Positions 8,641 through 27,483 of a stretch of DNA of 64,000 bases are shown piece after piece. A model generated the notes under the pieces. That model did no database searches, had not been told where the DNA came from, and was given only the letters and a program-made list of their open reading frames with translations. Source of the DNA: Dehalococcoidales bacterium (GTDB lineage Bacteria; Chloroflexota; Dehalococcoidia; Dehalococcoidales; RBG-16-60-22); contig DAOUDY010000028.1 of assembly GCA_034430755.1 (NCBI GenBank), positions 3,608-67,607 of the forward strand, given 5' to 3'. Position 1 is the stretch's first letter. Each line of letters begins with the position of its first letter. The position numbers were made by a program, and so were the translations under genes.

Positions 8641-11600
8641 CTATTTAACGGGCAGTTCCGCAATAAACGTTGCCCCTTTGTTTGGGGCACTTTCGGCAAA
8701 TATATGACCGCCATGTTCGGCAACTATGCCGTGGCAGATGCTCAAACCGAGGCCGGTGCCTTTGCCTACTTCCTTGGTGGTGAAAAACGGGTCAAACACG
8801 TGTCTCAGGTGTTCTTTATCTATACCCGGGCCGTCATCGGCAAATGAAATCCGGATGACATCTCCTCTGCGCTCTGTGGTTATAGTGAGTGTGCCTCTGC
8901 CATGTTCCTGTGACATAAAATGTTCAGCGTTGATAATGATATTGAGAAAGACCTGCTGCAGCCGGAAAATGTCGGCGGTGAGCTCGGGCAGGGCGGGGTC
9001 GAAGTTGGTAACCACTTCAATATTGTGTACCTTTTGTTCGTAAGCGCGCAGGTCCAGGACCGATTGTATCGCCTGGTTGATATCTGCCGGTTTCTTGGTT
9101 GTCTCATGCCGGCGGGCAAAAGTGAGCAGATTCCGCACCACCTGTGCCGTTCGCTGAGCCTCCCGGTTGATTATTGACAGGTCTTCCTTGATGTCTTTAG
9201 GGGTATCTTTTTTAAGCAGCAGCTCGGAGAAACCGATAATCCCGGTCAAGGGGTTATTGAGCTCGTGGGCAACCCCTGCCGCCAGCTCACCAATCGAAGC
9301 CAGTCTGTCAGTGACAATGAGCTGCTGCTCCATTTTCTTGCGCTCGGTGATTTCACGAATGTATCCCACGTTGACCGGCTTCCCCTTGTAACTGGAATAA
9401 GCATAGGTAACCTCAGCCGGTACCTCGGTGCCGTCCTTCCTGATAATGGTTAGCTCATAAAATCCCGGGAGGACTTCACCGCGTATCCTTCTGGCGTGTC
9501 TTTTCATGGCCTCTTCGCGGTCACTTGGGTGGATGAGGTCGGCCATGGACATGTTGAGCAGCTTCTTCCTGGAGTAGCCGGTGATGCGCGACCACTCATC
9601 ACTGGCGTAAACGTGCATGCCGACGCCCCGCTCATCGTCCTGTAGCATCACCACTGCCTCTCCGATTCTTTCCCCGAGCTCTAAAAGAGCGCGATACCTT
9701 TCTTCTGATTCCCGAAGAGCTTCCTCCGCCTTTTTGCGCTCGGTGACATCGTTGATAACTGTGAGCAAACAGGTTTCACCGCCTATTTCAATTTTATCGG
9801 TGGAAAGCAGGGCATCGACTTTACGCCCTGACTTGGTGTAAAGCTCCACTTCTAGATTTTTCACCGCTTTTGTTTTTTTGAGCAGTTGTAGTATTTTCCT
9901 TCTAGTTCTGCCAGTCTTTGTAATTCCCAATTCCAAGGTGGTTCGACCCCTCAGCTCCTTGCGGGAAAAGCCGAAGGTCTGCACATAGCTATTATTGACA
10001 TCCAGGTAGCGGCCTTCTTCCAGGGTGACAATGCTCATGGGGCGGGGGTTGGAGTGAAATGCCTTGGAGAACCTTTCCTCTGATATCCTTAATGCTTCCT
10101 CAGCCTGCTTTCTTTCCGTAAGGTCAAAGTGCGATGAGGCGATATACAGAGGTCTTTCCTCATCATCTTTAACCAGAGTGGCCACACTGAGGGTAGGGAA
10201 AGTGGTACCATCTTTCTTCAGGCGTATAAGTTCACCGGCGTTGCTGCCGGTTTTCATAATCCGCTCTCCTCTTTTTTTCATGAATTCCTTTTGGTCTTCA
10301 GGGTAAAGTTTAAACAGATTACTGCCAATAAGTTCCTCTACGGTATAACCGTGCATTCGGGCATAGGCCTCATTGGCATAAACAAGCCTGCCTTCCATAT
10401 CACCTATCGAGACACCATAGCCGGCATTATCGGCGATAATTTTAAATTTCCTGATGTCCTCTTCTGCCTTTTTACGCTCAGTGATATCACGCATAACATG
10501 AACGACAGCCGTGACTTTTCCTGCTGCATTAATCACCGGTGAACACAGCGTATCGAAGTAAAGACCCAGGGGAGCATTATAGCTCTCTCTAAGAGCCGGC
10601 CTTTTGGTCTTAATAGCTTGAAGGTGTGGGCAATCAGGCAACGGCTTCTTAGCTCCGCATATTAATTCGTAGCACAACCTGCCAATCGCCTGTTGAGGTT
10701 TTATCTCGAAATGGTCCGCAAAAGCCTTGTTGACGCGAAGAATCAGACAATCTTTGTCAGCCGTTAAAACACAATCGGAGATGGTATCAAAGGTGGTGCG
10801 CCACTCTTCAGCTGCCCGTCTTATCCGGTCCTCCGTCTGCTTACGCTCGGTAACATCCCTGATTACCGACAGTATAATCCTCCTGCCTCCAAGATTGATG
10901 GTACGGGCAAGTATCTCCGCGAGGAAGACGCTGCCGTCCTTGCGCAAGTGTTCCGATTCAAAAATGATGGCGCCCTCTTTTTGAACTCTCCTGATCCTTT
11001 CATCAATCAAGCTGGCCTTTTCCCGGGGCACCAGCTGCTTCAGGTTCATGGTGAGCATTTCCTCTTTGGAATAGCCGCGGGTGCGGCAGGTCGCTTCGTT
11101 CATGTAGATGAGATTGCCATCCAGGTCGGTGGCGACGATGGAGTCGGTAGCTTCATTCAGGAGGTGTGCCCTCAGCTGTAATGCCTCCTCGGCATGCTTG
11201 CGTTCCGTGATGTCCACCCAGTTTGACAGGTAATATTTGAACTCACCATTGGCCGTTACGGGCGTGGAGGTTATCTCCACCCAGAACCGCTTCCCCCTCT
11301 TTTTCTGGAAAAGCTGCTCTTTGGCTTTGTCGCCGTGGCGGAAGGCTGCTTCAAAGTCCTGCTTGAGTTTCCCCGACGTTTCCTCCGGCCACCAGGGGTA
11401 TGGGGCTTTCTGGCCAATCAGTTCAATCAGGGAATAGCCGGTAAGCACTTCAAACGCCGGATTGACGTAGCGGATGGAGGTATCCGGATTGGCTACAAAG
11501 ATGGGGTTGGGTGAGTGGTTCAGAATGGTAGAGCTGTACTCTTCACTCTGCCTCAGCGCTTCTTCCGCACACCGGCGCTCGGTTATGTCTTCAACAGTGG

Positions 11601-12048
11601 CAATAGCTCCCTGGTACTCACCCTTATCATTAATTAGGGGTGAGGCAGACAGGCTGGTGGAAACGATGGTCCCGTCTTTGCGTTTAAATTCAAAATCATG
11701 TCTTCCGCTCACCCCCTTTTGAAGACGCTCCAGATAGTGGGTGGCAATCTTAACGCCACGCTCATCCATGAATGAGAGCAGGTGTTTGCCCAGCAATTCT
11801 TCCGCACTGTAGCCCAATATCTCCGCCATTCGGGGGTTAACAAAGGTGGTCACCGCTTCGGCGTCAATCGCCCAGGCGCCTTCATGGGCATTCTTTATGA
11901 AAAGACGATATTTCTCGGCGGTTTCTCTTAGTTCAGCTTTGGTCTGCGTGTGCTTGACTTCCCCAGCTTCAAGGTTGGCGGTGCGCTGGCGCAGTTTTTT
12001 GGCGTTTCTTCGTTCATCTCCTTGCATCACAGCCATATTTATGTCCAA
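8641..12048 (-). CDS. multi-PAS sensor histidine kinase (7 PAS + HisKA + HATPase)
   Basis: 1135 aa. Seven PAS-terminal (D/E)(I/V/L)TER(K/R) motifs counted in the translation. H-box AHELNNPL. C-terminal DDGPGI...GTGLGLSI ATPase motifs. Confidence 0.9.
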   Translation of the reverse strand: MDINMAVMQGDERRNAKKLRQRTANLEAGEVKHTQTKAELRETAEKYRLFIKNAHEGAWAIDAEAVTTFVNPRMAEILGYSAEELLGKHLLSFMDERGVKIATHYLERLQKGVSGRHDFEFKRKDGTIVSTSLSASPLINDKGEYQGAIATVEDITERRCAEEALRQSEEYSSTILNHSPNPIFVANPDTSIRYVNPAFEVLTGYSLIELIGQKAPYPWWPEETSGKLKQDFEAAFRHGDKAKEQLFQKKRGKRFWVEITSTPVTANGEFKYYLSNWVDITERKHAEEALQLRAHLLNEATDSIVATDLDGNLIYMNEATCRTRGYSKEEMLTMNLKQLVPREKASLIDERIRRVQKEGAIIFESEHLRKDGSVFLAEILARTINLGGRRIILSVIRDVTERKQTEDRIRRAAEEWRTTFDTISDCVLTADKDCLILRVNKAFADHFEIKPQQAIGRLCYELICGAKKPLPDCPHLQAIKTKRPALRESYNAPLGLYFDTLCSPVINAAGKVTAVVHVMRDITERKKAEEDIRKFKIIADNAGYGVSIGDMEGRLVYANEAYARMHGYTVEELIGSNLFKLYPEDQKEFMKKRGERIMKTGSNAGELIRLKKDGTTFPTLSVATLVKDDEERPLYIASSHFDLTERKQAEEALRISEERFSKAFHSNPRPMSIVTLEEGRYLDVNNSYVQTFGFSRKELRGRTTLELGITKTGRTRRKILQLLKKTKAVKNLEVELYTKSGRKVDALLSTDKIEIGGETCLLTVINDVTERKKAEEALRESEERYRALLELGERIGEAVVMLQDDERGVGMHVYASDEWSRITGYSRKKLLNMSMADLIHPSDREEAMKRHARRIRGEVLPGFYELTIIRKDGTEVPAEVTYAYSSYKGKPVNVGYIREITERKKMEQQLIVTDRLASIGELAAGVAHELNNPLTGIIGFSELLLKKDTPKDIKEDLSIINREAQRTAQVVRNLLTFARRHETTKKPADINQAIQSVLDLRAYEQKVHNIEVVTNFDPALPELTADIFRLQQVFLNIIINAEHFMSQEHGRGTLTITTERRGDVIRISFADDGPGIDKEHLRHVFDPFFTTKEVGKGTGLGLSICHGIVAEHGGHIFAESAPNKGATFIAELPVK

Positions 12049-16734: not shown

Positions 16735-17128
16735 AACTTGGCACCTCCTTCGTTATCATTCTAATAAGCCTGTGACGGATTTAGAAACTTCTTAACCTAC
16801 AAGCAGTTAACAATCTGACGGCAGTGAAGTCAGGTTCAGGCGTTTATAGAATAGTTATACCATAATCCGGCCTGAGATAACGAGCGAAGCAGTATAAGCA
16901 TTTTCGGCTAGTGAAATTAAGCATAACAGCGGAAGGCAGGCCAGAAAATACGGCGATAAGCTGGGAGCAGACAGTACCGGCACCAGACTGAGAGAGATTA
17001 TCGCAGGTAAGGGCGAGGCAGGTATTGCCTCGGTGGAATATAACTGGTACATTTATGCTGGTAGCAGTTTTGAAATCTTAAAACGGATAAAAACCGTCTG
17101 ACAAATAAATAGTGGTGAATAGGCGCAT

Positions 17129-17986
17129 ATGCTCGCTCCTATAGGCTTACTGGGGATTAGCCGGCTATCGGTTGATTTTCAAGTCCGGGTCATCGACATC
17201 GCATGGCAGGATACCATCCGCCCCCTGTGTCTGATAGTCTATATTCTCACCATACTGGGGCTGGTGCTGAACTATGTTTTCACACAGAAATTCAAACCAG
17301 AGAAACACGGGGTTCAGGAAGCAGAACAAAGACAAGAGGTAGAGCGATACCGCAAGCCGACGCGGATTCTGCACTGGAGCCTTGCCGCTTTATTTGTCGT
17401 TTTATTCGGGAGCGGACTGGTAATCTTTTGCTTCCCCGGCTCGGCCATCTCAGGCAGCAGCTGGCTGCATAGCATGCACCGGGTGGCGGGTATAGTTTTT
17501 ATCATTTTGCCGCTGCTGTATTTGTTAATCAACCCGAAGGCAGCCTGGCGGGGCATAAAGCTGGCTTTCGTGTGGGGTGCGGACGACCTGGAATGGGTTA
17601 AGGCGGCACCAGAATACTATTACCTTCACGATGAACGGGCAATGCCGCCTCAAGGCTTTTTAAACACCCACCAGAAAGCCTGGTGGCTGGCGGCGATTGT
17701 TCTCGGGCCGGTCCTTGCCGTTACCGGCGTGCTTCTGTGGGCGTTTGAGGCAAGCGCAGCGACGCAATTCTATCAATTAATGCTCTTCTGCCACAGCGTA
17801 TCGTTCATCATCATCGGCAACATGTTCCTGATGCACATTTACCTGGCGGTTATTCACCCCGTCACCCGTCCCTGGAAAACCGGACCCTGGGGCGCTATGA
17901 CCAGGGGCAAAGTTCCCATGGAATACGCCCGGTCACACCATGGCAAATGGATAGAGGGGCTGCAGAAAGCCGGAGAGGACCGGTAA
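17129..17986 (+). CDS. di-heme cytochrome b, formate-dehydrogenase gamma (FdnI)-like, orphan
   Basis: 285 aa. RILHWSLAALFVVLFGSGL, HSMHRVAG, and HSVSFIIIGNMFLMHIYLAVIHP supply candidate heme-ligand His residues. C-terminal GKVPMEYARSHHGKW is typical of the family. No catalytic partner is adjacent. Confidence 0.7.
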   Translation: MLAPIGLLGISRLSVDFQVRVIDIAWQDTIRPLCLIVYILTILGLVLNYVFTQKFKPEKHGVQEAEQRQEVERYRKPTRILHWSLAALFVVLFGSGLVIFCFPGSAISGSSWLHSMHRVAGIVFIILPLLYLLINPKAAWRGIKLAFVWGADDLEWVKAAPEYYYLHDERAMPPQGFLNTHQKAWWLAAIVLGPVLAVTGVLLWAFEASAATQFYQLMLFCHSVSFIIIGNMFLMHIYLAVIHPVTRPWKTGPWGAMTRGKVPMEYARSHHGKWIEGLQKAGEDR

Positions 17987-18055
17987 AACCAGTCCCGGGC
18001 TAATCCGGAGGCTATTCCAGTTCAGTCTATTTTGGAAAAGAAGGGTGTTATTTTA

Positions 18056-18292
18056 TCAACGTTTGTTTTTCCGGTGGTGCTGATCGGGTGGTTTCGGATA
18101 GAAAATCTGGGGATGAAACAGCATGTAGAGCAGTGAGCCGAAGCAGGGAATAAATAGTATGGTCAATGCCCAGGGTGGCTTTCGTTTCCCGAATACCCTA
18201 TCCCGGCTGGCTAAATCATGTAGCATGAAAGCCGCCAGAATCCAGTGGACTACGCCAAAGAGAATTATCCTTAAAATCCATTCGGAGTCCAT
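18056..18292 (-). CDS. small membrane protein with PLD-nuclease N-terminal (PLDc_N) type domain
   Basis: 78 aa, 2 TM. PPWALTILFIPCFGSLLYMLF pattern. Confidence 0.65.
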   Translation of the reverse strand: MDSEWILRIILFGVVHWILAAFMLHDLASRDRVFGKRKPPWALTILFIPCFGSLLYMLFHPQIFYPKPPDQHHRKNKR

Positions 18293-18395
18293 ATATTCGC
18301 TTCCAGTGGCCCTGCCATTTCAGTTAAGTAATTATATATGGTACTCGTTTTGTGTGGCAAAAGTTGTGGCAGAGGGAAGGGGCGATGGTGCGAGT

Positions 18396-19142
18396 TTAGT
18401 CCCCTGAACCTTCCTGCGCTGAGATATTCCTGAAGATGGAAATCTGGCACGTCGTGCCGTCAGAGTCAATATATGGCGCAGCCACGATTTCATACTGTGT
18501 GCCGTCCGGAAAGGGGCATTTCCAGCGACCAATTACGCCTTTTTCGATAACATCGAGCAGTTTACAGTCCCTGCCACATGGGGCATCAAAGTGGTACAGG
18601 TGCTGATAGCAGGGCAGGCCGGTGCCATCGCCGAAGCTATTGGTCATATACGAGTTCATGAATCTGATTTTATAGTCGGGACCGGTAATGAGAATGCCGT
18701 CAGCCATGCCGTCAACGATTTTCAGCAGCCGGTCTCTTCCCGCAGTTAGCATTGTTTCCAGCTGTCGGCACCGCTCCGTCCTGTTGCGGCACATGCCGAT
18801 CAGTGTGCCAATGGCACCGGCGAAAACCGTGAACAGTACGATTCTGATGAGAGGGTCAGGAAACGGGGAAATGAAAAAGGCGCGTGGCAGGAAGATTATG
18901 AAGGAAACCAGCGTTATGATAATAGCGCCTTTTACTCTGGCAACGTGCGCGGCGTAGATAATCGGTACCAGAAACAGAAGGCGATGAATATCGTGGATAC
19001 TGTAGAAAAATTTAAGACGCATGGCGTCCCAGGTTGCCCAGTCCACCAGTTCGCCGAAATAGTAGAATGCGGTGCAGAAGATGAGCATTACGGGCAGGGT
19101 GAACATCTTTAAACCGGGACCACCGTTCGTTTCTTTCACCAT
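18396..19142 (-). CDS. membrane protein: polytopic N-terminal sensor module + Cys-rich PAS-like domain, no output domain
   Basis: 248 aa. The TM region aligns with the N-terminus of the kinase at 21265..22902 (LPRAFFIS vs LPRAVFIS etc.). C-terminal half is PAS-like (LLKIVDGMADGILITGPDYKIRFMN...) with PCY..x..PCGRDC..x..KCP. Confidence 0.6.
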   Translation of the reverse strand: MVKETNGGPGLKMFTLPVMLIFCTAFYYFGELVDWATWDAMRLKFFYSIHDIHRLLFLVPIIYAAHVARVKGAIIITLVSFIIFLPRAFFISPFPDPLIRIVLFTVFAGAIGTLIGMCRNRTERCRQLETMLTAGRDRLLKIVDGMADGILITGPDYKIRFMNSYMTNSFGDGTGLPCYQHLYHFDAPCGRDCKLLDVIEKGVIGRWKCPFPDGTQYEIVAAPYIDSDGTTCQISIFRNISAQEGSGD

Positions 19143-19225
19143 TTCTCTTTATCTCAGGCAAGGAGTGATATTGACATAAAATCATCCGGCTTTAAATCAG
19201 GCGACGGCGCCAGCCGGCCCGGCCC

Positions 19226-19381
19226 TTACGGTTTGCCTGCCTTCAAATTGGCTACCTGATTACCCTGGGCTTTTGCCAGCAGGATTTCGATGCTGTCCAG
19301 TATCAGGCAACAGGCAAATGCCAGCGGGACCATGAAGATAGGTGTCAGCAATATCAGGATGAAAATCAACGGCACTTCCAT
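19226..19381 (-). CDS. unannotated micro-protein sORF1, single TM (51 aa)
   Basis: MEVPLIFILILLTPIFMVPLAFACCLILDSIEILLAKAQGNQVANLKAGKP. GGAGGTG SD 6 nt before ATG. Most divergent member of the five-gene paralog array. Confidence 0.55.
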   Translation of the reverse strand: MEVPLIFILILLTPIFMVPLAFACCLILDSIEILLAKAQGNQVANLKAGKP

Positions 19382-19472
19382 TTCCCTCACCTCCCTTAAT
19401 CAGCGTATCTCTTCACATGGTTTGCCGATTAACAGTTTTTTACTCTTCCTGCCACGGCAGGGATTGGCCACC

Positions 19473-19649
19473 TCAGCAGTTCTTCGGGGGCTCAAGCGCT
19501 ATGGCTAATTCAAACTTCCGCGCCGCTCGCTCCCGGCGTTTTCTTTTGATGGCTCGATAGATTCCGCCGAGGTTCACAAACCAGACAAAGATGCCAGCAA
19601 AGGTAATAAGCGGCACCGCTAGAATGATTGCCATGATATGCCATTCCAT
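19473..19649 (-). CDS. unannotated micro-protein sORF2, single TM (58 aa)
   Basis: MEWHIMAIILAVPLITFAGIFVWFVNLGGIYRAIKRKRRERAARKFELAIALEPPKNC. GGAGAG 6 nt before ATG. Close paralog of sORF5. Confidence 0.65.
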   Translation of the reverse strand: MEWHIMAIILAVPLITFAGIFVWFVNLGGIYRAIKRKRRERAARKFELAIALEPPKNC

Positions 19650-19696
19650 AGTCGGCTCTCCGTTTTACCTCTGGTCTAAGACCATCGATGGTATTT

Positions 19697-19861
19697 TCAG
19701 GTTGTGCTGGTGGTCTGGTGGCTCTGAGCCGGTGCTTTCTTGCGCTTTCTATCGCGAATGCAACAGAATAAACCCTTGATCGCGCAACACCAGATAAGCA
19801 ATGGCCATACGATGACTATAGGTACAATGAGCACTAGAAGTATGATAAACCCCCACTCCAT
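19697..19861 (-). CDS. unannotated micro-protein sORF3, single TM (54 aa)
   Basis: MEWGFIILLVLIVPIVIVWPLLIWCCAIKGLFCCIRDRKRKKAPAQSHQTTSTT. AAGGAGGTG 5 nt before ATG. Close paralog of sORF4. Confidence 0.7.
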   Translation of the reverse strand: MEWGFIILLVLIVPIVIVWPLLIWCCAIKGLFCCIRDRKRKKAPAQSHQTTSTT

Positions 19862-19914
19862 TTTCACACCTCCTTACCATTGCTGTAGGCTCTGCATTAT
19901 TCTTAAATTCTTCC

Positions 19915-20067
19915 TCACGGCCTTTTAGGCTCAGTAGTTGCTTTCTGGTATATCCGCTCGCGAACCAGGTCGTACAGGATTTTGATGGCTCCGGCCCAGA
20001 TGAGAGCCGGCCACAGGATTACGAAAGGCACGACGAGCGCCAGAAGTATAATGAATCCCGGCTCCAT
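19915..20067 (-). CDS. unannotated micro-protein sORF4, single TM (50 aa)
   Basis: MEPGFIILLALVVPFVILWPALIWAGAIKILYDLVRERIYQKATTEPKRP. Purine-rich GAAGGGGGGGAAG before ATG. The 65-aa track ORF 19931..20128 is the wrong frame over the same DNA. Confidence 0.65.
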   Translation of the reverse strand: MEPGFIILLALVVPFVILWPALIWAGAIKILYDLVRERIYQKATTEPKRP

Positions 20068-20164
20068 TTTTCTTCCCCCCCTTCAAAGTGTAGGCTTTGT
20101 TTTTCACCGGCAATACTCTATACCGCATCTCGTAACAATGACTCCTTGTTTATTTTAATCCCCT

Positions 20165-20323
20165 TTATTCCATCTCAACCCTCTTTTTAAGGGCAACCCT
20201 CTTTCTCCGGGCGTTTTTCAGAGCGGTGTAGATACCACCGATGTTGGTGTACCAAACGAATGCCGCTGGAAAGAGGATTATTGGTATGGCGATGATCAGT
20301 GCTAAGATGAATTCCCAGTGCAT
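20165..20323 (-). CDS. unannotated micro-protein sORF5, single TM (52 aa)
   Basis: MHWEFILALIIAIPIILFPAAFVWYTNIGGIYTALKNARRKRVALKKRVEME. GGAGGT 9 nt before ATG. First gene of the array. Confidence 0.65.
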   Translation of the reverse strand: MHWEFILALIIAIPIILFPAAFVWYTNIGGIYTALKNARRKRVALKKRVEME

Positions 20324-20540
20324 CTTCCTGTTACCTCCACTATAACCTTATCACTGCGCTGTCAAAGATAGCTTCCGCTGCGATGCCTATTTCTGAGTTC
20401 CAGAAAGGCGTATTCTCTGCTGTCTTGAATTACGTATTTAAACTATTAATAACCGTGACTTGATAGGCAATTATACTTAGTGATGGCCGCGCCCGATTAA
20501 TGGCCATCTGTTGATATTGAGCGGTTGGAGAAAAAAAGGT

Positions 20541-21230
20541 ATGATAAGGGTGAGGAGCAGTGATTTGAAGAGCATCAGAGTCCTGATTGCTGATGACCAT
20601 GCTGTAGTGCGGGAGGGTACCCGTCAGATTCTGGAGCAGGAATCGGACATAAATGTTGTTGCCGAAGCTGCCGATGGGGAAGAAGCGGTAAGGCTGGCAG
20701 CCGATTCCGATCCTGATGTCATCATCATGGACATATCCATGCCCAAGCTGGACGGCGTCGAGGCGACCAGGCAGATAAAGGAGCTTCATCCCAATATCGC
20801 CATCCTCATTCTTACCGCCTATGATGATGACCAGTTTGTCTTTAATTTAATTGAGGCCGGAGCTGCCGGTTACCTGCTCAAGAGCGTGCGCGGCCGGGAG
20901 CTGGTGGAGGCAATACGGGCGGTAAACGCCGGGGAATCGGTGCTGCATCCGGCAATCGCCCGGAAGGTGCTCAATCGGTTCGCCCCGGCGGCCGGTAAAG
21001 AGTCAAAGCAAAGGGTTCTGGAAGTGCTCAGTGACCGCGAGGTGGAGGTATTGAGGCTGGCGGCAAGAGGACTGAGCAACCAGGATATTGCCGCTGAGCT
21101 CTGTTTGAGTCTGCGCACGGTTCAGGCCCATCTGGGACATATCTTCAACAAGCTGCAGGTCAGCTCGCGGACGGAGGCCGTGGTGCGCGCTCTCAAAGAG
21201 AGCTGGATCACCCTCGATGATATCGCCTGA
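20541..21230 (+). CDS. NarL/LuxR-family response regulator
   Basis: REC (IRVLIADDH...IMDISMPKLDG) + LuxR HTH (LSDREVEVLRLAARGLSNQDIAAELCLSLRTVQAHL). The track ORF starts at 20511. ATG 20541 or TTG 20565 (GGTGAGGAG SD) are more plausible starts. Confidence 0.9.
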   Translation: MIRVRSSDLKSIRVLIADDHAVVREGTRQILEQESDINVVAEAADGEEAVRLAADSDPDVIIMDISMPKLDGVEATRQIKELHPNIAILILTAYDDDQFVFNLIEAGAAGYLLKSVRGRELVEAIRAVNAGESVLHPAIARKVLNRFAPAAGKESKQRVLEVLSDREVEVLRLAARGLSNQDIAAELCLSLRTVQAHLGHIFNKLQVSSRTEAVVRALKESWITLDDIA

Positions 21231-21264
21231 TAAGTACGACGGGTGAAAAACCTGAGGGAGTAAT

Positions 21265-22902
21265 GTGACCGGATATTCATTCACGCGGTGGCTGATAGGG
21301 GCGCTCCGCAGCCCCGTTCTCTGGTTCATTCTGATACTGCTCAGCCTGATTACCATACCGTATTATGCCGAAGCCCTCGCCTTCCCTTCGTTCATCATCG
21401 AGTTGATTTCCAAGCTTGACCTGGACCGGCACGCCTTCGAGCGGATACTCTATCTGGCACCGATTGTCTGGGCGGGGTTTATCTTTGGCTGGAGGGGGTC
21501 TGTCGTTATATCCGTGATGGCCCTGGTGCTCATGTTGCCCCGGGCAGTCTTCATTTCAGAACACCCCCGGGATGCACTTTTTGAGACCGGCGCCGTCTTC
21601 ATCGTGGGCAATGTGCTGGCCATCAGTTTTGCCTCGCTGCGCCGGGAGAGGGAGTATCGCACGCAGCTTGAGGTCGCCAGGCACGACCTCGAGGCCAATA
21701 TTGAAATTATCCGGGGAAATGAAAGACAGCTGGCCGTGCTGAACCAGATTGCCAGCACCGTATCCCAGTCCCTGGATTTGAATCAGGTACTGGACAGCGC
21801 CATCGGCAATGTGGTTGACGTCATGCAGGTTGATATCGCCTGGATATATCTGCTGGATGAGGAATTTGGAGAGCTGGTGATGAGCGTCCACCGGGGCATT
21901 CTGGAGGAGGTGGTAAAAGGGGTGGATAGATTAAAAGTCGGCGAAGGTTTCAATGGTCGGGTGGCACAGACGGGGGAGCCATTGTTTGTGTACGATGCTT
22001 CTCAGGATTCGAGGCTTACTCGCGAGGTGGTCAGCAAGCATAACATACAGTCACTGCTCATTGTCCCGCTGCGCTACCGGGCCAAAGTAAATGGCACGCT
22101 CTGCGTTGCCATGTATCGCCAGCGGGAATTTCATCAGGAAGAGATAGACCTGTTAACCGCCATTGGCAATCAGATTGGTGTGGCCGTGGAGAATGCCCGA
22201 CTTTACCAGCAGCAGCAGGGCGTCGCCGAGCAGATGCGCGGCATGCAGGAGAACCTGCGTTTTTACCTGCAGCAGGTGACCAAAGCGCAGGAGGAGGAAA
22301 GAAAGCGTATTTCCCGCGAACTGCATGACGATACGGTACAGGACCTGGTGGTCCTTTCCCGTCAGCTTGACACGCTGGCCTCCGGCAGCGAGCTTTCAAA
22401 GGAAAACCGTCGCAATCTGGAGGAACTCTGGCAAAAGACAAACGATATCATCAAGGAAGTGCGTCGCTTGAGCCAGGACCTGCGACCGGCGGCACTGGAC
22501 CGTCTGGGGCTGTTGCCGGCTCTGGAGCGGCTGGCTTCGGACACCGCCGATTACTCTGGAATAGAGACCGCGGTTAAAGTAAGTGGCAAGGAAAGGCGTC
22601 TCAACGAAGAGGTGGAACTCGTCCTGTTCCGTATCACGCAGGAGGCGCTGCGTAACGTATGGCGGCATGCGCAGGCAACCAGGGTTGAGATTGCCGTTGC
22701 TTTTGAAAAGAACAGGGTTAAAGTGACCGTCAGCGATAACGGGAAGGGCTTTGAAATTCCCGATAAACTCGGGACGCTGGCCCGTGATGGCAAGCTCGGC
22801 CTGGCCGGTATGCAGGAGCGGGCTCAACTCATCGGAGGCGAACTCACCGTAAACTCAGCGGCGGGCGAAGGTTCTACCGTAACCGTGGAGGTGCCGGTTT
22901 AG
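21265..22902 (+). CDS. sensor histidine kinase: polytopic N-terminal module + GAF + HisKA_3 + HATPase (NarX/DegS type)
   Basis: 545 aa. GAF region ([11 protein letters not shown]...[15 protein letters not shown]), H-box [19 protein letters not shown]...[12 protein letters not shown] start in track. Confidence 0.9.
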
Positions 22903-23336
22903 TCTGACTTTTCTGCCAAGGAAATGGAAACGCTGTCCTGCCTTACGTTTTTCCGTGTCCAGTCGACGATTTCAGCAATCGGGGTTCCCGGCAGGAACAC
23001 CTGTTTGATGCCGGCCTTCTTCAATCTGGGGATGTCTTCCTCTGGAATGATGCCGCCGCCAATGACGGTGATGTCGCCGGCACCGGCGGCTCTCAACTGC
23101 CTGACTACTTCGGGGAACAGGTAAAGATGCGCCCCGGAAAGGCAGCTCAAGCCAATCAGGTCTACATCTTCCTGAATTGCGGCGCTTACAATCTGCTCCG
23201 GGGTCTGGTGCACCCCGGTATAGATGACTTCAAATCCGGCGTCGCGGAGGCCGCGGGCGATAACCCTGGCGCCACGGTCATGGCCATCCAGGCCAGGCTT
23301 GGCAATTAGCACCCGCAATTTCCGGTCGCGTTCCAT
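22899..23336 (-). CDS. B12-binding small subunit of a split acyl-CoA mutase (IcmB-like size)
   Basis: 145 aa. [18 protein letters not shown] contains the DxHxxG cobalamin-binding motif. Its stop codon overlaps the stop codon of the convergent kinase gene. Confidence 0.85.
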
Positions 23337-23370
23337 TGCTTCTCCTGCTTATGTCCCGGTAATTCCAAAG

Positions 23371-25047
23371 CTAGAAGAACCCGGGGTCGCGGTACTCTCC
23401 AAAGGCCTCGCGATAAACATCGCATATCTCCTGCTCGGTGGCATAGGCCCTGACCGCCTCAATGACGCAGGGCATGACGTTTTTATCGCTCCGGCAGGCG
23501 GCACGGAGGTCGTCGAGTGTTTTTAATACTGTCCGGTTGTCCCGGGCCCTCTTCACTTCTCTTAATCTTTTGGCCTGCCCTGCCTCCACCTTTTCGTCAA
23601 TCTTCAATATCTCAATGGGGGCCTCTTCTTCAGCACGGTATTTGTTCACTCCCACCACCACCTTTTCCTGGTTATCCACCTGCTGCTTGAACCTGTAGGC
23701 GGCATTGGCGATCTCCCGCTGCGGAAAGCCCCGGTCGATTGCGGCGAGCATTCCGCCCATGTCGTCAATCCCTTTGATGTATTTCCAGGCTTCATCTTCT
23801 ATCTGGCTGGTCAGGGCCTCGATGAAATAAGAACCGGCCAGGGGGTCAATGGTGTTGACCACGCCGGTCTCTTCGGCCAGGAGCTGCTGGGTGCGGAGGG
23901 CAATGGTGGCGGCGAATTCTGTGGGCAGGGCATACTCCTCGTCGAAGGAATTGGTATGGAGGGACTGGGTTCCGCCCAGCACTGCCGCCAGCGCCTCGGT
24001 GGCAGTGCGGACGATGTTATTGTACGGCTGCTGGTGCGTCAGCGAGCAGCCGGCCGTCTGCGTGTGGAACCTGAGCCACCAGGAGCGGGGGTTCTTCGCC
24101 TGGAACCGGTCCCTCATGATTTTGGCCCACATCCGCCGCGCCGCCCGGAACTTGGCGATTTCCTCGAAGAAGTCCATGTGAGAGTCAAAGAAGAAAGACA
24201 GCCTCGGGGCGAAGGCGTCAACGTCCAGTTTTTTACGCGCTATGACATCCTGAACGTAGGCGATGCCATCGGCCAGGGTGAAGGCCAGCTCCTGTACGGC
24301 GGTGGCGCCTGCCTCGCGGATATGGTAGCCGCTGATGCTGATGGTGTTCCAGCGCGGCACATGGTGAGTGCCGAACTCGATGGTGTCACTGATAAGCCTT
24401 ATCGACGGTTCCGGGGGGCACATAAAAGTTTTCTGGGCAATGAACTCTTTGAGCATGTCATTTTGAATGGTGCCGCCCACCCGGTCCCAGCTCACTCCCT
24501 GCCTCTCGGCGGCCACGAGGTACATTGCCCAGAGCACGCTGGCGGGTGGATTGATGGTCATGGAGGTGGTCACTTTGTCCAGGGGAATATTTCTGGTCAG
24601 GACTTCAAAGTCGGCCAGAGTGTCGATAGCCACCCCGCACTTGCCGACCTCGGCTCTGGCCTTTGGTGAATCGGAATCGTAGCCCATAAGGGTGGGGAAG
24701 TCAAAGGCGGTGCTCAGGCCCGTCTCGCCCTCTTTTAGAAGCTGGTGCCACCGCCGGTTGGTATCCTCGGCGGTGCCGAGGCCGGAGAACATGCGGAAAG
24801 TCCAGACCCTGCCCCGGTAGCCGGTGGCCTGGCAGCCGCGGGTGAACGGGAAAAAGCCGGGGTAGCCGATTTCACGGTCAAAGTCCAGGTCGCGAATATC
24901 CTCCGGGGTGTATATCGGGTTTACCAGCAGGTCGGAAATGGTGGATAATCGCTTCTTTGCCAGCAGGTCAGGGGCGGTTCTGGTAACCTCGGCCTCCCAT
25001 TTTTTTATCCCCTGGCGAGCATCGGCCAGCGTCTTCTCATCGAACAT
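23371..25047 (-). CDS. acyl-CoA mutase large (substrate-binding) subunit, isobutyryl-CoA-mutase-like residue signature
   Basis: 558 aa. Aligns by eye along its length with methylmalonyl-CoA mutase alpha ([12 protein letters not shown]..., [36 protein letters not shown]). It has WTFRMFSG (Phe at the MCM Tyr89 position) and KEFIAQKT (Gln at the MCM Arg207 position). Confidence 0.9.
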
Positions 25048-25063
25048 GGTCGTCCACCGCCCT

Positions 25064-25624
25064 TCAGGCCTGACGGGTGGCCTGCGTATTCGATTGCGTC
25101 CAGGTAGAACCCTTGTGGAGCGACCTTTTATTTATCTCCAGCCGCTCCGGGTTTTTGGCCAGCATAGCCTCCATTATCTGGATAACGCTGTTTACGGAAA
25201 CGACGGCGCGACAGGCCAGCAGGGCGCCGAGGGCAACCAGATTGCTGCCCCCGCTGTCCCCCAGCTCAGCGGCAAGGTCGTAGGCCGGGATATAGACGAT
25301 GCGTATATCCTGCCGTGCTGACGTTTCCGGAACAAGCGACTGATTGACCACAAGCAGTCCGCCGGCCTTGGTGGTCTGTTCGGACCTGGCCAGGGAAGCC
25401 GAGTTCATGGCTACGGCGATGGTGGGCCGGGAGATAAACAGCGCCCCAATGCGTTCATCGGAAATGGTGACGTTGCACCACACCGTACCTCCCCTTTTTT
25501 CGGCGCCGTACGAGGGCATGTATACCACTTCCCGGTTTTCTCGGAAAGCGGCCTCGGTGAGCAGCCGCCCGATGAACAGCACCCCCTGTCCGCCAAAGCC
25601 GCCTATGACGATTTCCTCATGCAT
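25064..25624 (-). CDS. 2-oxoacid:ferredoxin oxidoreductase, gamma subunit
   Basis: 186 aa. [19 protein letters not shown]-terminus typical of OFOR gamma. 8-nt overlap with beta. Confidence 0.85.
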
Positions 25625-26417
25625 GATGGCCCTCTTTTTTCAATGCCGCAACGGCTTCAATCACCTTGTATTCTCCGAGTGGATAATGGGGGAGCATGTT
25701 TTCCGCAAGCCATTCCATGGCCTTTATCGGCTCCACGCGCCAGTTGGTCGGGCAGGGAGAAAGCACCTCGACCAGCGACATGCCCAGATTGGCGAGCTGG
25801 ACCCGGAAAGCGAGCTTTATCGCCTGCTTGGCTTTTCTGACCGCGGCCGGACTGTGCACGGCAACGCGGGCGATATACGCGGTGCCTTCCAGTGTAGACA
25901 GCATCTCGCAGACGCGGATGGGATGGCCGGCCAGAGACGCTTCCCGCCCCCCGGGGGTTGAGGTCGAGTACATGCCGGGGAGCGTGGTGGGGGCCATCTG
26001 ACCTCCGGTCATGCCGTAGATGGCGTTGTTGACGAAGATGGTGGTGATATTTTCCCCGCGGGCACAGGCGTGCACTATCTCGGCGGTGCCGATGGCCGCC
26101 AGGTCGCCGTCACCCTGGTAGGTGAAGGGGACGAGGTGGGGGTGGCACCTTTTGATGGCGGTGGCCACAGCCGGGGCGCGTCCGTGGGCCGACTCCAGGC
26201 CGTCGGATTTGAAATAGTGGTAGGAATTGACCGAGCAGCCAATGGAAGCCACGCATATCGCTCTCTCTTTGATTTTCAGCTCGTCGATTACCTCGGCGAC
26301 CAGTCGAAAAACAATACCGTGGCCGCAACCAGGACAGAAGTGAAAGGGATGCTCCTCCATTGATTCCGGCCGCTGGTATACTACTGTTTCCAGTTTGTTG
26401 TCTTCCAGATGAGCCAC
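25617..26417 (-). CDS. 2-oxoacid:ferredoxin oxidoreductase, beta (TPP-binding) subunit
   Basis: 266 aa. FCPGCGHG, GDGDLAAIG...NNAIYGMTGGQ. Confidence 0.9.
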   Translation of the reverse strand: MAHLEDNKLETVVYQRPESMEEHPFHFCPGCGHGIVFRLVAEVIDELKIKERAICVASIGCSVNSYHYFKSDGLESAHGRAPAVATAIKRCHPHLVPFTYQGDGDLAAIGTAEIVHACARGENITTIFVNNAIYGMTGGQMAPTTLPGMYSTSTPGGREASLAGHPIRVCEMLSTLEGTAYIARVAVHSPAAVRKAKQAIKLAFRVQLANLGMSLVEVLSPCPTNWRVEPIKAMEWLAENMLPHYPLGEYKVIEAVAALKKEGHHA

Positions 26418-26424
26418 TTCAACC

Positions 26425-27483
26425 CTACTTTATTATTTTTTCTACGGCTTCCAGTATCTCATCGGCAGAGATGGGCACGCCGGCAAACTGATTGACCAGC
26501 GCCACCTGCGCCTCCGCGCTCATGGAAAGCCTGACATCTTCGATAAGCTGGCCGCAGCTCAGCTCCGCCACCAGGAAACGCCTAATCTTCCGTGATAAAT
26601 CGGACAGGGGTTTAACGGGGAAGGGGAAAAGGGTGACGGGGCGGAATATACCGACTTTGAGGCCGTCCTCGCGGGCCATTTTCATGGCCGTCATCGCGGC
26701 ACGGAAGGCGCTGCCGTAGGCGACGATGACCAGAGAAGCGTCATCGAGGTTGATGCCTTCGTAGCGTACTTCACCTTGCTTTATTTTCTCGAACTTCTGC
26801 CGCAATAACTCAACGCGCGGGCGGTAATCAACCGGGTCCATGGCAAAGGAATTGATGATGTTCTTGGGGCGCCCCACTGCTCCCGTGATGGCCCATGGTT
26901 TTTGGGGAAATTTTGTGACGGGCTGGCGCATGGTTACCGGCTCAACGGCCTGGCCGAGGAAGCCATCAGGCAGCAGCGCCACCGGATTGCGGTATTTATC
27001 GGCGAGTTCGAAGGCGAGCATGGTGAGGTCCATCATCTCCTGCACTGATGATGGGGCCAGGGTGATAATGTGATAGTCCCCGTGTCCTCCTCCTTTAGTG
27101 GCCTGAAAATAGTCGCCCTGGGCGCCGCCGATATCGCCCAGACCCGGCCCGCCGCGCATCACATTCACCACCACCGCCGGGATTTCGGCACCGGCCATGT
27201 AGGAGATGCCCTCCTGCTGCAGGCTGAAACCGGGGCTGGAGGTGGAAGTCATGGCGCGGCAGCCAGACGCCGCAGCACCGTAGACCATATTGATGGCGGA
27301 CAGCTCGCTCTCCGTCTGGACGAAGACCCGTCCTTCCTCCGGCATCCGTTTTGACATGTGCTCGAGGAGCTCGTTCTGGGGGGTAATGGGGTAGCCAAAG
27401 TAGGCATGGCAGCCAGCTAATATGGCACCTTCAGCGATGGCGATATTACCGGCCATTAAAGTCTTTTCAGACACTGAAAACAC
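26425..27483 (-). CDS. 2-oxoacid:ferredoxin oxidoreductase, alpha subunit
   Basis: 352 aa. LMAGNIAIAEGAILAGC...YPITPQNE motif. GTG start in track; exact start uncertain. Confidence 0.9.
   Translation of the reverse strand: MFSVSEKTLMAGNIAIAEGAILAGCHAYFGYPITPQNELLEHMSKRMPEEGRVFVQTESELSAINMVYGAAASGCRAMTSTSSPGFSLQQEGISYMAGAEIPAVVVNVMRGGPGLGDIGGAQGDYFQATKGGGHGDYHIITLAPSSVQEMMDLTMLAFELADKYRNPVALLPDGFLGQAVEPVTMRQPVTKFPQKPWAITGAVGRPKNIINSFAMDPVDYRPRVELLRQKFEKIKQGEVRYEGINLDDASLVIVAYGSAFRAAMTAMKMAREDGLKVGIFRPVTLFPFPVKPLSDLSRKIRRFLVAELSCGQLIEDVRLSMSAEAQVALVNQFAGVPISADEILEAVEKIIK

Follow-up and report, generated by a model that had tools for sequence, protein, structure and literature searches.

A conserved, lineage-restricted family of small, predicted single-pass membrane proteins encoded in tandem beside two-component genes in Dehalococcoidia

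Background

It is well established that some small membrane proteins tune sensor kinases. The enterobacterial proteins MgrB, SafA and UgtS are single-pass proteins of 30-65 amino acids (aa) that act on the membrane histidine kinase PhoQ through membrane and juxtamembrane contacts (PMC12648545). Expression of MgrB is controlled by the system that it regulates, giving feedback, and its functional Cys residues are periplasmic (PMC12648545). Here we analyse a stretch of 64,000 nucleotides (nt) from a Dehalococcoidales bacterium (GenBank assembly GCA_034430755.1, contig DAOUDY010000028.1, positions 3,608 to 67,607; hereafter the window), in which five tandem small open reading frames (sORFs), named A to E, lie directly beside a kinase and regulator pair. 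From the sequence evidence set out below we conclude firmly that the sORFs are real protein-coding genes of a conserved, selected and lineage-restricted family. The family is new as such: it has no model and no name, and full-text literature searches turned up no paper on it. Small proteins that cross the membrane once and attach to sensors or complexes are already a known kind, to which the family belongs; what is unusual about the family is its constant-plus-variable tandem paralogs, its topology-preserving fusions and the reuse of its module as an enzyme anchor.

Despite the likeness in size, the sORF peptides have no sequence similarity to MgrB or SafA (Pfam and NCBIfam, E up to 10). Their predicted topology is opposite to that of MgrB, with ~3 residues outside and the tail in the cytoplasm; they are encoded as hetero-paralogous arrays of 2-5 genes, with fused multi-module forms; and their partner would be a DUF4118/MASE1-like domain of four transmembrane (TM) helices (4-TM) rather than PhoQ.

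Two other groups of known systems are comparable. KdpF, CydX/CydH and CcoQ are peptides of a single helix that stabilise an energy or transport complex and share its operon. The gene kdpF heads kdpFABC beside kdpDE, and KdpD has a 4-TM DUF4118 domain; this layout resembles that of sORFs and the genes that follow them (their cargo) beside a kinase whose membrane domain is weakly similar to DUF4118 (E 0.25). The sORFs differ in having no sequence similarity to these peptides and, in the window, no enzyme operon after the array; operon membership of this type is seen instead in related loci, with formate dehydrogenase (Fdh)-NrfD or Hdr-Mvh genes. Furthermore, the Hdr-Mvh cargo is normally soluble, and one near-constant first sORF subunit stands ahead of unrelated cargo. 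In the second group, LiaS, BceS and SaeS are kinases with few or no extracytoplasmic residues that take their input from a partner membrane protein (LiaF, BceAB and SaeP/Q, respectively). Some array-linked kinases are similarly reduced, with just a 4-TM domain, HisKA_3 and HATPase (as in L096; fetched loci are given L numbers throughout). Known accessories of this group are larger proteins or transporters, and none is known to be a tandem array of ~55-aa single-helix paralogs.

Results and discussion

Five paralogous sORFs

An earlier note on this DNA described the array as five unannotated, paralogous genes for single-TM peptides. Five consecutive ATG-started sORFs are indeed present on the minus strand at 19226-20323, with the lengths claimed (52, 50, 54, 58 and 51 aa for A to E); sORF1 to sORF5 of that note run from low to high coordinate and correspond to E, D, C, B and A. 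The sORFs are listed here with stop codons included in the coordinates, E values from a family profile that is independent of the window, and ratios of nonsynonymous to synonymous substitution (dN/dS) between orthologs.

20165-20323, minus strand: sORF A, 52 aa, canonical near-constant type, MHWEFILALIIAIPIILFPAAFVWYTNIGGIY followed by a basic tail; profile E = 1e-31; dN/dS 0.11-0.18; public gene call
19915-20067, minus strand: sORF B, 50 aa, specialised 'WPALIWAGA' subtype; profile E = 9e-5; orthologs L013_2 and L015_2, dN/dS ~0.5
19697-19861, minus strand: sORF C, 54 aa from the ATG, old duplicate of B with two Cys-Cys doublets; profile E = 1e-10
19473-19649, minus strand: sORF D, 58 aa, of the 'FVWFVNLGGIY' subtype, whose tail is the most basic (net +7); profile E = 1e-17; orthologs L013_3 and L014_3, dN/dS 0.22-0.25
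19226-19381, minus strand: sORF E, 51 aa from the ATG, the copy that has diverged most, its tail weakly charged; profile E = 1.7e-3; positional ortholog L013_4, dN/dS 0.45

A Shine-Dalgarno (SD)-like purine run precedes every ATG by 5-9 nt, as had been claimed: GGAGGT, 9 nt from the start, for A; AAGGAGGTG-5 nt-ATG for C (which also has a GTG 6 nt upstream of its ATG); and GGGAGGTG-6 nt-ATG for E. The spacers between successive sORFs from A to E measure 97, 53, 47 and 91 nt, in agreement with the range of 47-97 nt given previously, and the Cys-Cys doublets attributed to sORF1 and sORF3 are found in E and C. The sORFs are missing from the ORF track of the window because of its 60-aa cutoff. The description of the genes as unannotated, however, is incorrect: public gene calls hold all five as nameless hypotheticals, both in CAYTOS010000002.1 (GCA_964439695.1) and in five near-identical JGI contigs.

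The independent profile is a hidden Markov model (HMM) of 111 canonical members from other organisms, with no window sequences. Run over every window ORF of 30 aa or longer (626 in all), it placed A, D, C, B and E first, in that order, and the next-best ORF had E = 2. sORF E is the weakest, marginal member, yet it has a positional ortholog in L013.

The earlier note did not recognise the family, and no curated library contains it. For the five peptides, Pfam and NCBIfam gave only sub-threshold noise at E up to 10 (KleE, MASE2, Hemotin, HemY_N and TPR). A sequence search of the PDB with the family profile found no relative, only chance-level similarity to PsbK and to ion-channel helices (E of 0.5 or more). 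The best PDB match, a helix segment of PsbK from photosystem II (IPVLF..AFVW-like, E 0.7-6), was rejected as a relative because of its chance-level E value and its unrelated organism and context.

Size and distribution of the family

A word-indexed search recovered 475 clusters at 90% identity (E up to 0.01), and an exhaustive HMMER search of 1.84 billion representatives recovered 493 clusters at 50% identity (E up to 1e-3), 219 of them at E up to 1e-10. The clusters are nearly all from metagenome-assembled genomes (MAGs) of Dehalococcoidia. A scan of one genome per species, which used canonical motifs and is therefore biased toward arrays with a canonical copy, confirmed 118 loci; the 79 kept comprise 78 from Dehalococcoidia/Chloroflexota MAGs and one from a 'Deltaproteobacteria' bin. 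At least 14 assemblies hold two separate loci. The sole non-Chloroflexota locus (L090, JABMRW010000097.1) lies on a 9.4-kb contig and has the same layout of kinase, regulator and sORF; it could be mis-binned or the product of lateral transfer.

Selection and paralog history

The contention that the peptides are paralogs under selection is borne out by the dN/dS values, which are 0.11-0.18 for A (the most constrained copy), 0.22-0.25 for D, 0.2-0.5 for B/C and 0.45 for E; each estimate comes from ~50 codons and is noisy, and all lie in the same direction. Together with the independent profile matches, which single out exactly five of 626 ORFs, these values rule out chance ORFs. The pair similarities noted by hand alignment (sORF3 with sORF4, sORF5 with sORF2) are also present: B and C are identical at 26 of 50 positions, A and D at 24 of 51. 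Between B and C the dN/dS is 0.15 and dS is ~2.7, a saturated value that makes their duplication old. Close relatives of B are P0070, P0096 and P0097.

Array order is kept in the nearest species, L013 having A, a B/C-type gene, D and E in succession. By profile we found 204 members in 92 fetched loci, which gave 90 arrays after removal of redundancy. The number of copies is 1 in 33 arrays, 2 in 45, 3 in 8, 4 in 2 and 5 in 2, placing the window at the top of the range. Two or more genes are present in 57 arrays, and 47 of these begin with a gene of canonical type (FP[AV]A[FY].W[YF]): the first copy is near-constant (FPAAFVWYLNIGGIY), and later copies are specialised.

Some related arrays have a different recent history. 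At 8224-8415 of L005, in an otherwise intact array, a 63-aa member has lost most of its TM helix through an internal deletion (MQWEIIPVVILVIGISIAIKEA...) and is apparently a decaying copy. The free-standing arrays at 10001-10352 of L081 and 10001-10359 of L089 each consist of two near-identical copies (1-3 amino-acid differences), which points to recent duplication or gene conversion, unlike the old, diverged paralogs of the window.

Peptide architecture, topology and fused forms

The single TM helix and positive-inside topology proposed earlier agree with the composition of all five peptides: the best 19-residue window of each averages 2.55-3.24 on the Kyte-Doolittle hydropathy scale, an acidic N-flank of 2-4 residues precedes the helix, and the C-flank has a net charge of +1 to +7. 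Over 172 aligned modules from non-redundant loci, conservation is 95% for M1, 81% for W3, 98% for P14, 88% for P19, 95% for W24, 80% for Y25, 85% for N27 and 93% for G30, and the conserved helix is followed by a K/R-rich tail of variable length. The family pattern is thus M-E/Q-W ... P14 ... F-P-A-A-F-V-W-Y-L-N-I-G-G-I-Y plus a basic tail, in proteins of ~50-90 aa. We conclude firmly that the sORF proteins are single-pass, most likely with the N-terminus out and the C-terminus in; each would have ~3 N-terminal residues outside, then a helix of ~22 residues that contains P14, P19 and W24, a turn region (N-x-G-G) and a cytoplasmic basic tail.

Natural fusions are consistent with this orientation. 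The module supplies the N-terminus of a Pyr_redox_2/Pyr_redox_dim flavoenzyme (553-558 aa) whose gene lies within Hdr-Mvh operons, and of a protein with a HupF/HypC domain (Pfam 4.8e-17). As these enzymes are cytoplasmic, the C-terminus of the module is predicted to be cytoplasmic as well, in agreement with the positive-inside rule. Proteins of 133-190 aa with the architecture module-TM-module form a subfamily of their own (at least 169 clusters), and module-TM-module-TM-module proteins also occur. In such fusions the linker helix returns each module to one orientation, which is what parallel packing of the free peptides would predict. An AlphaFold2 (AF2) model of a natural 137-aa fusion with three TM helices has long helices at 2-37, 40-75 and 77-128 (predicted local distance difference test [pLDDT] 74); the predicted template modelling score (pTM) of 0.41 is too low for helix packing to be judged. 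That the constant and specialised subunits work as hetero-oligomers is well supported but indirect for the free peptides: near-constant A-type and specialised B/C, D and E subunits would associate in parallel in the membrane.

The architecture and conservation of the peptides bear on two further explanations. It is extremely unlikely that they are membrane peptides of the type-I toxin kind, as suggested in the earlier note, whose activity antisense RNAs would restrain. The peptides do share small size, hydrophobicity and tandem paralogy with such toxins, and there are a few terminator-like hairpins on the opposite strand. However, these hairpins number 5 against a shuffle expectation of 2.4 +/- 1.5, which is close, and an Rfam scan of 17000-22000 gave no relevant match, so that neither gives a signal of antisense RNA. 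Moreover, the family is conserved across a bacterial class (~490 clusters at 50% identity) under purifying selection (dN/dS down to 0.11), has strong SD motifs at all five sORFs, heads metabolic operons and lends its module to enzymes as an anchor.

Only slightly less remote is the idea that the peptides are TatA-like translocase components, or MifM/SecM-like arrest or leader peptides that control downstream genes. A short N-tail, a TM helix, Gly-Gly and a basic helix recall TatA, the FdhA of related loci has a Tat signal, and the peptides are upstream ORFs of operons. Against a TatA-like function, there is no Pfam MttA_Hcf106 match at E up to 10, the F-G-x-K-L-P hinge is absent (the region reads N-I-G-G-I-Y), and most of the cargo (Hdr-Mvh) is cytoplasmic. 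In a leader peptide the arrest motif would sit in the C-terminal tail, whereas conservation here is in the TM helix; nor do multiple copies and free-standing arrays fit.

Gene neighbourhood in the window

The genes and intergenic region next to the array are as follows.

20324-20564, no strand assigned: divergent intergenic region between sORF A and the response regulator gene; mean column identity 84% over four species, in an alignment that extends a short way into the 5' coding sequence of the regulator
20565-21230, plus strand: NarL/GerE-type response regulator (Pfam Response_reg 2.5e-32, GerE 3.4e-20)
21265-22902, plus strand: histidine kinase with 4-TM, GAF, HisKA_3 and HATPase domains (Pfam); the 4-TM profile made from the PAS protein recognises its N-terminal domain at 2.1e-12
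18396-19142, minus strand: 248-aa protein with a 4-TM domain and a Cys-rich PAS domain (4TM-PAS), without an output domain; 83 nt downstream of the array
18056-18292, minus strand: mini membrane protein of 78 aa with a PLDc_N domain (Pfam 26.8 bits, cutoff 23.3), encoded by the final gene of the conserved unit

The order in the window is thus kinase< regulator< A B C D E > 4TM-PAS > PLDc_N, and the arrangement described in the earlier note is confirmed on both sides: Pfam domains and gene order identify the divergent NarL-type two-component pair, and the co-directional genes encode an output-less membrane-PAS protein (by AF2 and Foldseek) and a PLDc_N mini-protein (by Pfam). The two-component and PAS neighbours recur in related Dehalococcoidia loci. 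A promoter and terminator scan found no minus-strand terminator inside the array and gave weak promoter-like matches only; a 93-nt segment spanning the spacer from sORF E to the PAS gene folded with z = 0.38, indicating neither a terminator nor an attenuator. The invariant blocks of the intergenic region include TTTGAC...GTGATAA.GTTA..GTGGAGGT, directly ahead of sORF A, and this region presumably holds both promoters as well as putative binding sites of the regulator.

The PLDc_N ORF is absent from the public gene calls (CAYTOS010000002.1) and, unlike the sORFs, is a true annotation gap. On the far side of the two-component genes, at 22899-27483, lies a block of 2-oxoacid:ferredoxin oxidoreductase and methylmalonyl-CoA mutase genes. 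It is kept in the three nearest species (L013-L015), so the entire 15-kb neighbourhood is syntenic in the window clade.

A census of context was made by calling ORFs in 81 non-redundant loci centred on arrays and clustering the neighbours. The recurrent layout is a histidine kinase and a NarL-type regulator, divergent from sORFs that are followed by optional cargo, a 4TM-PAS protein of ~250 aa and a PLDc_N protein of ~80 aa. The regulator cluster is the immediate divergent upstream gene in 35 of the 81 loci and the 4TM-PAS gene lies downstream of the array in 30; PLDc_N homologs (cluster 14; 80-aa genes) come after the PAS gene in many related loci. A reverse search that started from the 4TM-PAS homologs, of which there are at least 517 clusters, led to operon-head sORFs in three independent contexts (five fetched loci; one context is the L033 contig).

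A shared 4-TM domain and a proposed role as sensor partners

A profile of the membrane half of 4TM-PAS matches the PAS protein itself and the N-termini of all 47 HisKA_3 kinases that adjoin arrays. It also matches two HisKA-type kinase classes (clusters 20 and 68), of which cluster 68 has the same Cys-PAS domain. By Pfam this 4-TM domain is weakly like MASE1 and DUF4118. Within the 64-kb window only two proteins have it, and both flank the array.

We favour the reading, with a probability of roughly 0.4, that at this locus the sORF peptides are membrane partners of the 4-TM sensor proteins, made from an operon beside the two-component genes. The sORFs would be the first products of an operon that starts beside the NarL-type genes, with their transcription controlled by the neighbouring regulator. 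The peptides would contact the 4-TM domain common to the adjacent histidine kinase and the kinase-less 4TM-PAS protein, and would either modulate an intramembrane sensor or feed signals into it, with a presumed effect on kinase activity in the manner of MgrB and SafA on PhoQ. The evidence for this reading is of several kinds. First, the sORFs travel with the 4-TM domain whatever the class of the kinase: in the fetched loci 67 of 85 proteins with the domain are <1.5 kb from an array, and the two in the window flank the array. The divergent regulator immediately upstream of arrays in 35 of 81 loci and the reverse search from the 4TM-PAS homologs also speak for a link to the sensors. Second, a minimal unit of kinase, regulator, sORFs and 4TM-PAS, without any enzyme, recurs as in the window, and some kinases have no sensor domain beyond the membrane domain: the partner kinase of L096 (373 aa) is just 4-TM, HisKA_3 and HATPase, the architecture of an intramembrane-sensing kinase, which would need input from the membrane. 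Third, small membrane proteins such as MgrB, SafA and UgtS are precedents (PMC12648545). Of the roles suggested in the earlier note, that of sensor accessory is the best supported for the window, given the tight clustering of the shared 4-TM domain with arrays across species.

Several observations weigh against a role as sensor partners. The proximity of 4-TM proteins to arrays is counted in array-centred loci and uncorrected for phylogeny. Of 38 well-flanked arrays, 13 lack any 4-TM protein within 10 kb; certain operons headed by a two-component pair of this type contain no sORFs (L090); and two-gene arrays stand free between unrelated genes in L037, L038, L046, L081 and L089. These three points argue against any obligatory neighbour. 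In addition, an sORF subtype typical of Hdr-Mvh arrays (see below) persists in Hdr-Mvh loci that have no two-component or PAS genes within 10 kb (L031 and L072), which ties at least the specialised subunits to enzymes and not to the kinase.

The free-standing arrays, together with the assemblies that hold two loci, would also fit a membrane function of their own, independent of the neighbouring genes (such as one in general membrane stress, lipids or insertion), the neighbourhood then reflecting co-regulation only. We consider this improbable: arrays cluster repeatedly with 4-TM sensors and with two enzyme operons, and the sORF subtype tracks the cargo.

The window 4TM-PAS protein was modelled with a pLDDT of 74.5 (AF2), and its C-terminal half has a PAS fold (Foldseek LOV/PAS matches, E 4e-6). 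In its PAS domain Cys 178, 189, 193 and 232 are invariant and C209 is present in ~90%; an invariant H50-D51-x-H53-R54 probably lies in the first outer loop. These residues suggest a metal, Fe-S or redox-sensing site. In a kinase class found in L053 (528 aa), the same 4TM and Cys-PAS domains are fused to a kinase core, so that 4TM-PAS looks like a sensor half without its kinase. The Cys-PAS profile also matches (1.2e-13) the PAS repeats of a 1135-aa multi-PAS protein encoded in the window at 8641-12048 (minus strand), a soluble signalling protein that may contain a related version of this sensing domain.

Cargo operons and a possible role in redox complexes

Three kinds of cargo recur after the sORFs. 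In 17 arrays, including that of the window, there is none and 4TM-PAS follows directly. In 14 arrays the cargo is FdhA (selenocysteine-type, with a Tat signal), an FeS subunit and NrfD, and in 19 it is HdrC, HdrB, HdrA (split at an in-frame TGA), MvhD, the small and large subunits of a NiFe hydrogenase, and a HycI protease. The subtype xSG[LIV][YF] is present in 17/19 Hdr-Mvh arrays versus 2/71 others (Fisher p 3e-14, uncorrected for phylogeny). It usually reads ...VSGLYQV.RD..RRRV...AEEPV and is encoded either by a separate gene or within a fusion with three TM helices, where it is the second module. Fdh arrays have a second-copy type of their own, and the window clade has the B/C and E types.

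These associations raise, as the main alternative to the sensor reading, the possibility, tentative and on the unlikely side for this locus, that the peptides are tether or assembly subunits of redox complexes, with the helix serving as a membrane docking or oligomerisation tag. Free peptides and tagged enzymes would co-assemble, and would hold the otherwise soluble HdrCBA-MvhDGA complex, the flavin adenine dinucleotide (FAD) oxidoreductase or a HypC-like chaperone at the membrane, or stabilise FdhAB-NrfD, much as KdpF, CydX or CcoQ serve their own complexes. Arrays directly head the FdhA(Sec)-FdhB-NrfD and HdrCBA-MvhDGA-HycI operons, the xSG[LIV][YF] subtype tracks the Hdr arrays and stays when sensor genes are absent, and the module is covalently joined both to the Pyr_redox_2 enzyme inside an Hdr-Mvh operon and to the HupF/HypC domain. 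On the other hand, the window array is among the largest (5 genes), yet the same-strand genes directly after it are 4TM-PAS and PLDc_N only, with no Fdh or Hdr-Mvh complex. The PAS gene likewise follows directly after the 17 arrays without cargo, many arrays are free-standing, and the first, most conserved copy is alike whatever the cargo. The earlier suggestion of a redox subunit is plausible in the related Fdh and Hdr-Mvh loci; its proposed link to an orphan cytochrome b in the window is one of neighbourhood alone.

This cytochrome b561 (17129-17986, plus strand; Ni_hydr_CYTB, 5e-21) is found next to arrays again in L014 and L056. In L027 a cytochrome b561 follows FdhA and FdhB at the usual place of NrfD, and the protein may be an alternative membrane subunit of an Fdh-like enzyme rather than an sORF partner. 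In related loci the FdhA-like subunit and HdrA have an in-frame TGA at a position typical of selenocysteine (...HCARI*HSS...), for example at 8545-11577 of L001, at 10608-11171 of L028 with the following ORF, and in clusters 9 and 8 of the Hdr loci. The Dehalococcoidia concerned probably use selenocysteine.

Sensor and enzyme associations could be combined in a two-part adaptor, in which the constant subunit would dock on the 4-TM domain and a specialised subunit on the downstream enzyme complex (Hdr-Mvh, Fdh-NrfD, the module-tagged FAD oxidoreductase or HypC). We regard this as doubtful on present sequence evidence. If true, it would couple an intramembrane-sensing kinase physically to the redox machinery under its control, sensing activity or assembly state, in a lineage thought to respire without quinones; flux or activity would be sensed via mini-protein adaptors.

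Conclusions

Dehalococcoidia are abundant in the subsurface and in marine sediments and are important in dehalogenation, and the wiring and regulation of their unusual, largely quinone-independent energy metabolism are poorly understood. The sORF family is among the most conserved features beside their two-component, formate-dehydrogenase-like and Hdr-Mvh hydrogenase operons, although it has been without a name or a domain model, and it is a clear example of small-protein biology hidden by length cutoffs. Natural fusions of the module already indicate topology and oligomerisation. The family offers a concrete way into two questions: how signals reach kinases whose sensor part is a membrane domain alone, and whether 'soluble' Hdr-Mvh complexes sit at the membrane.

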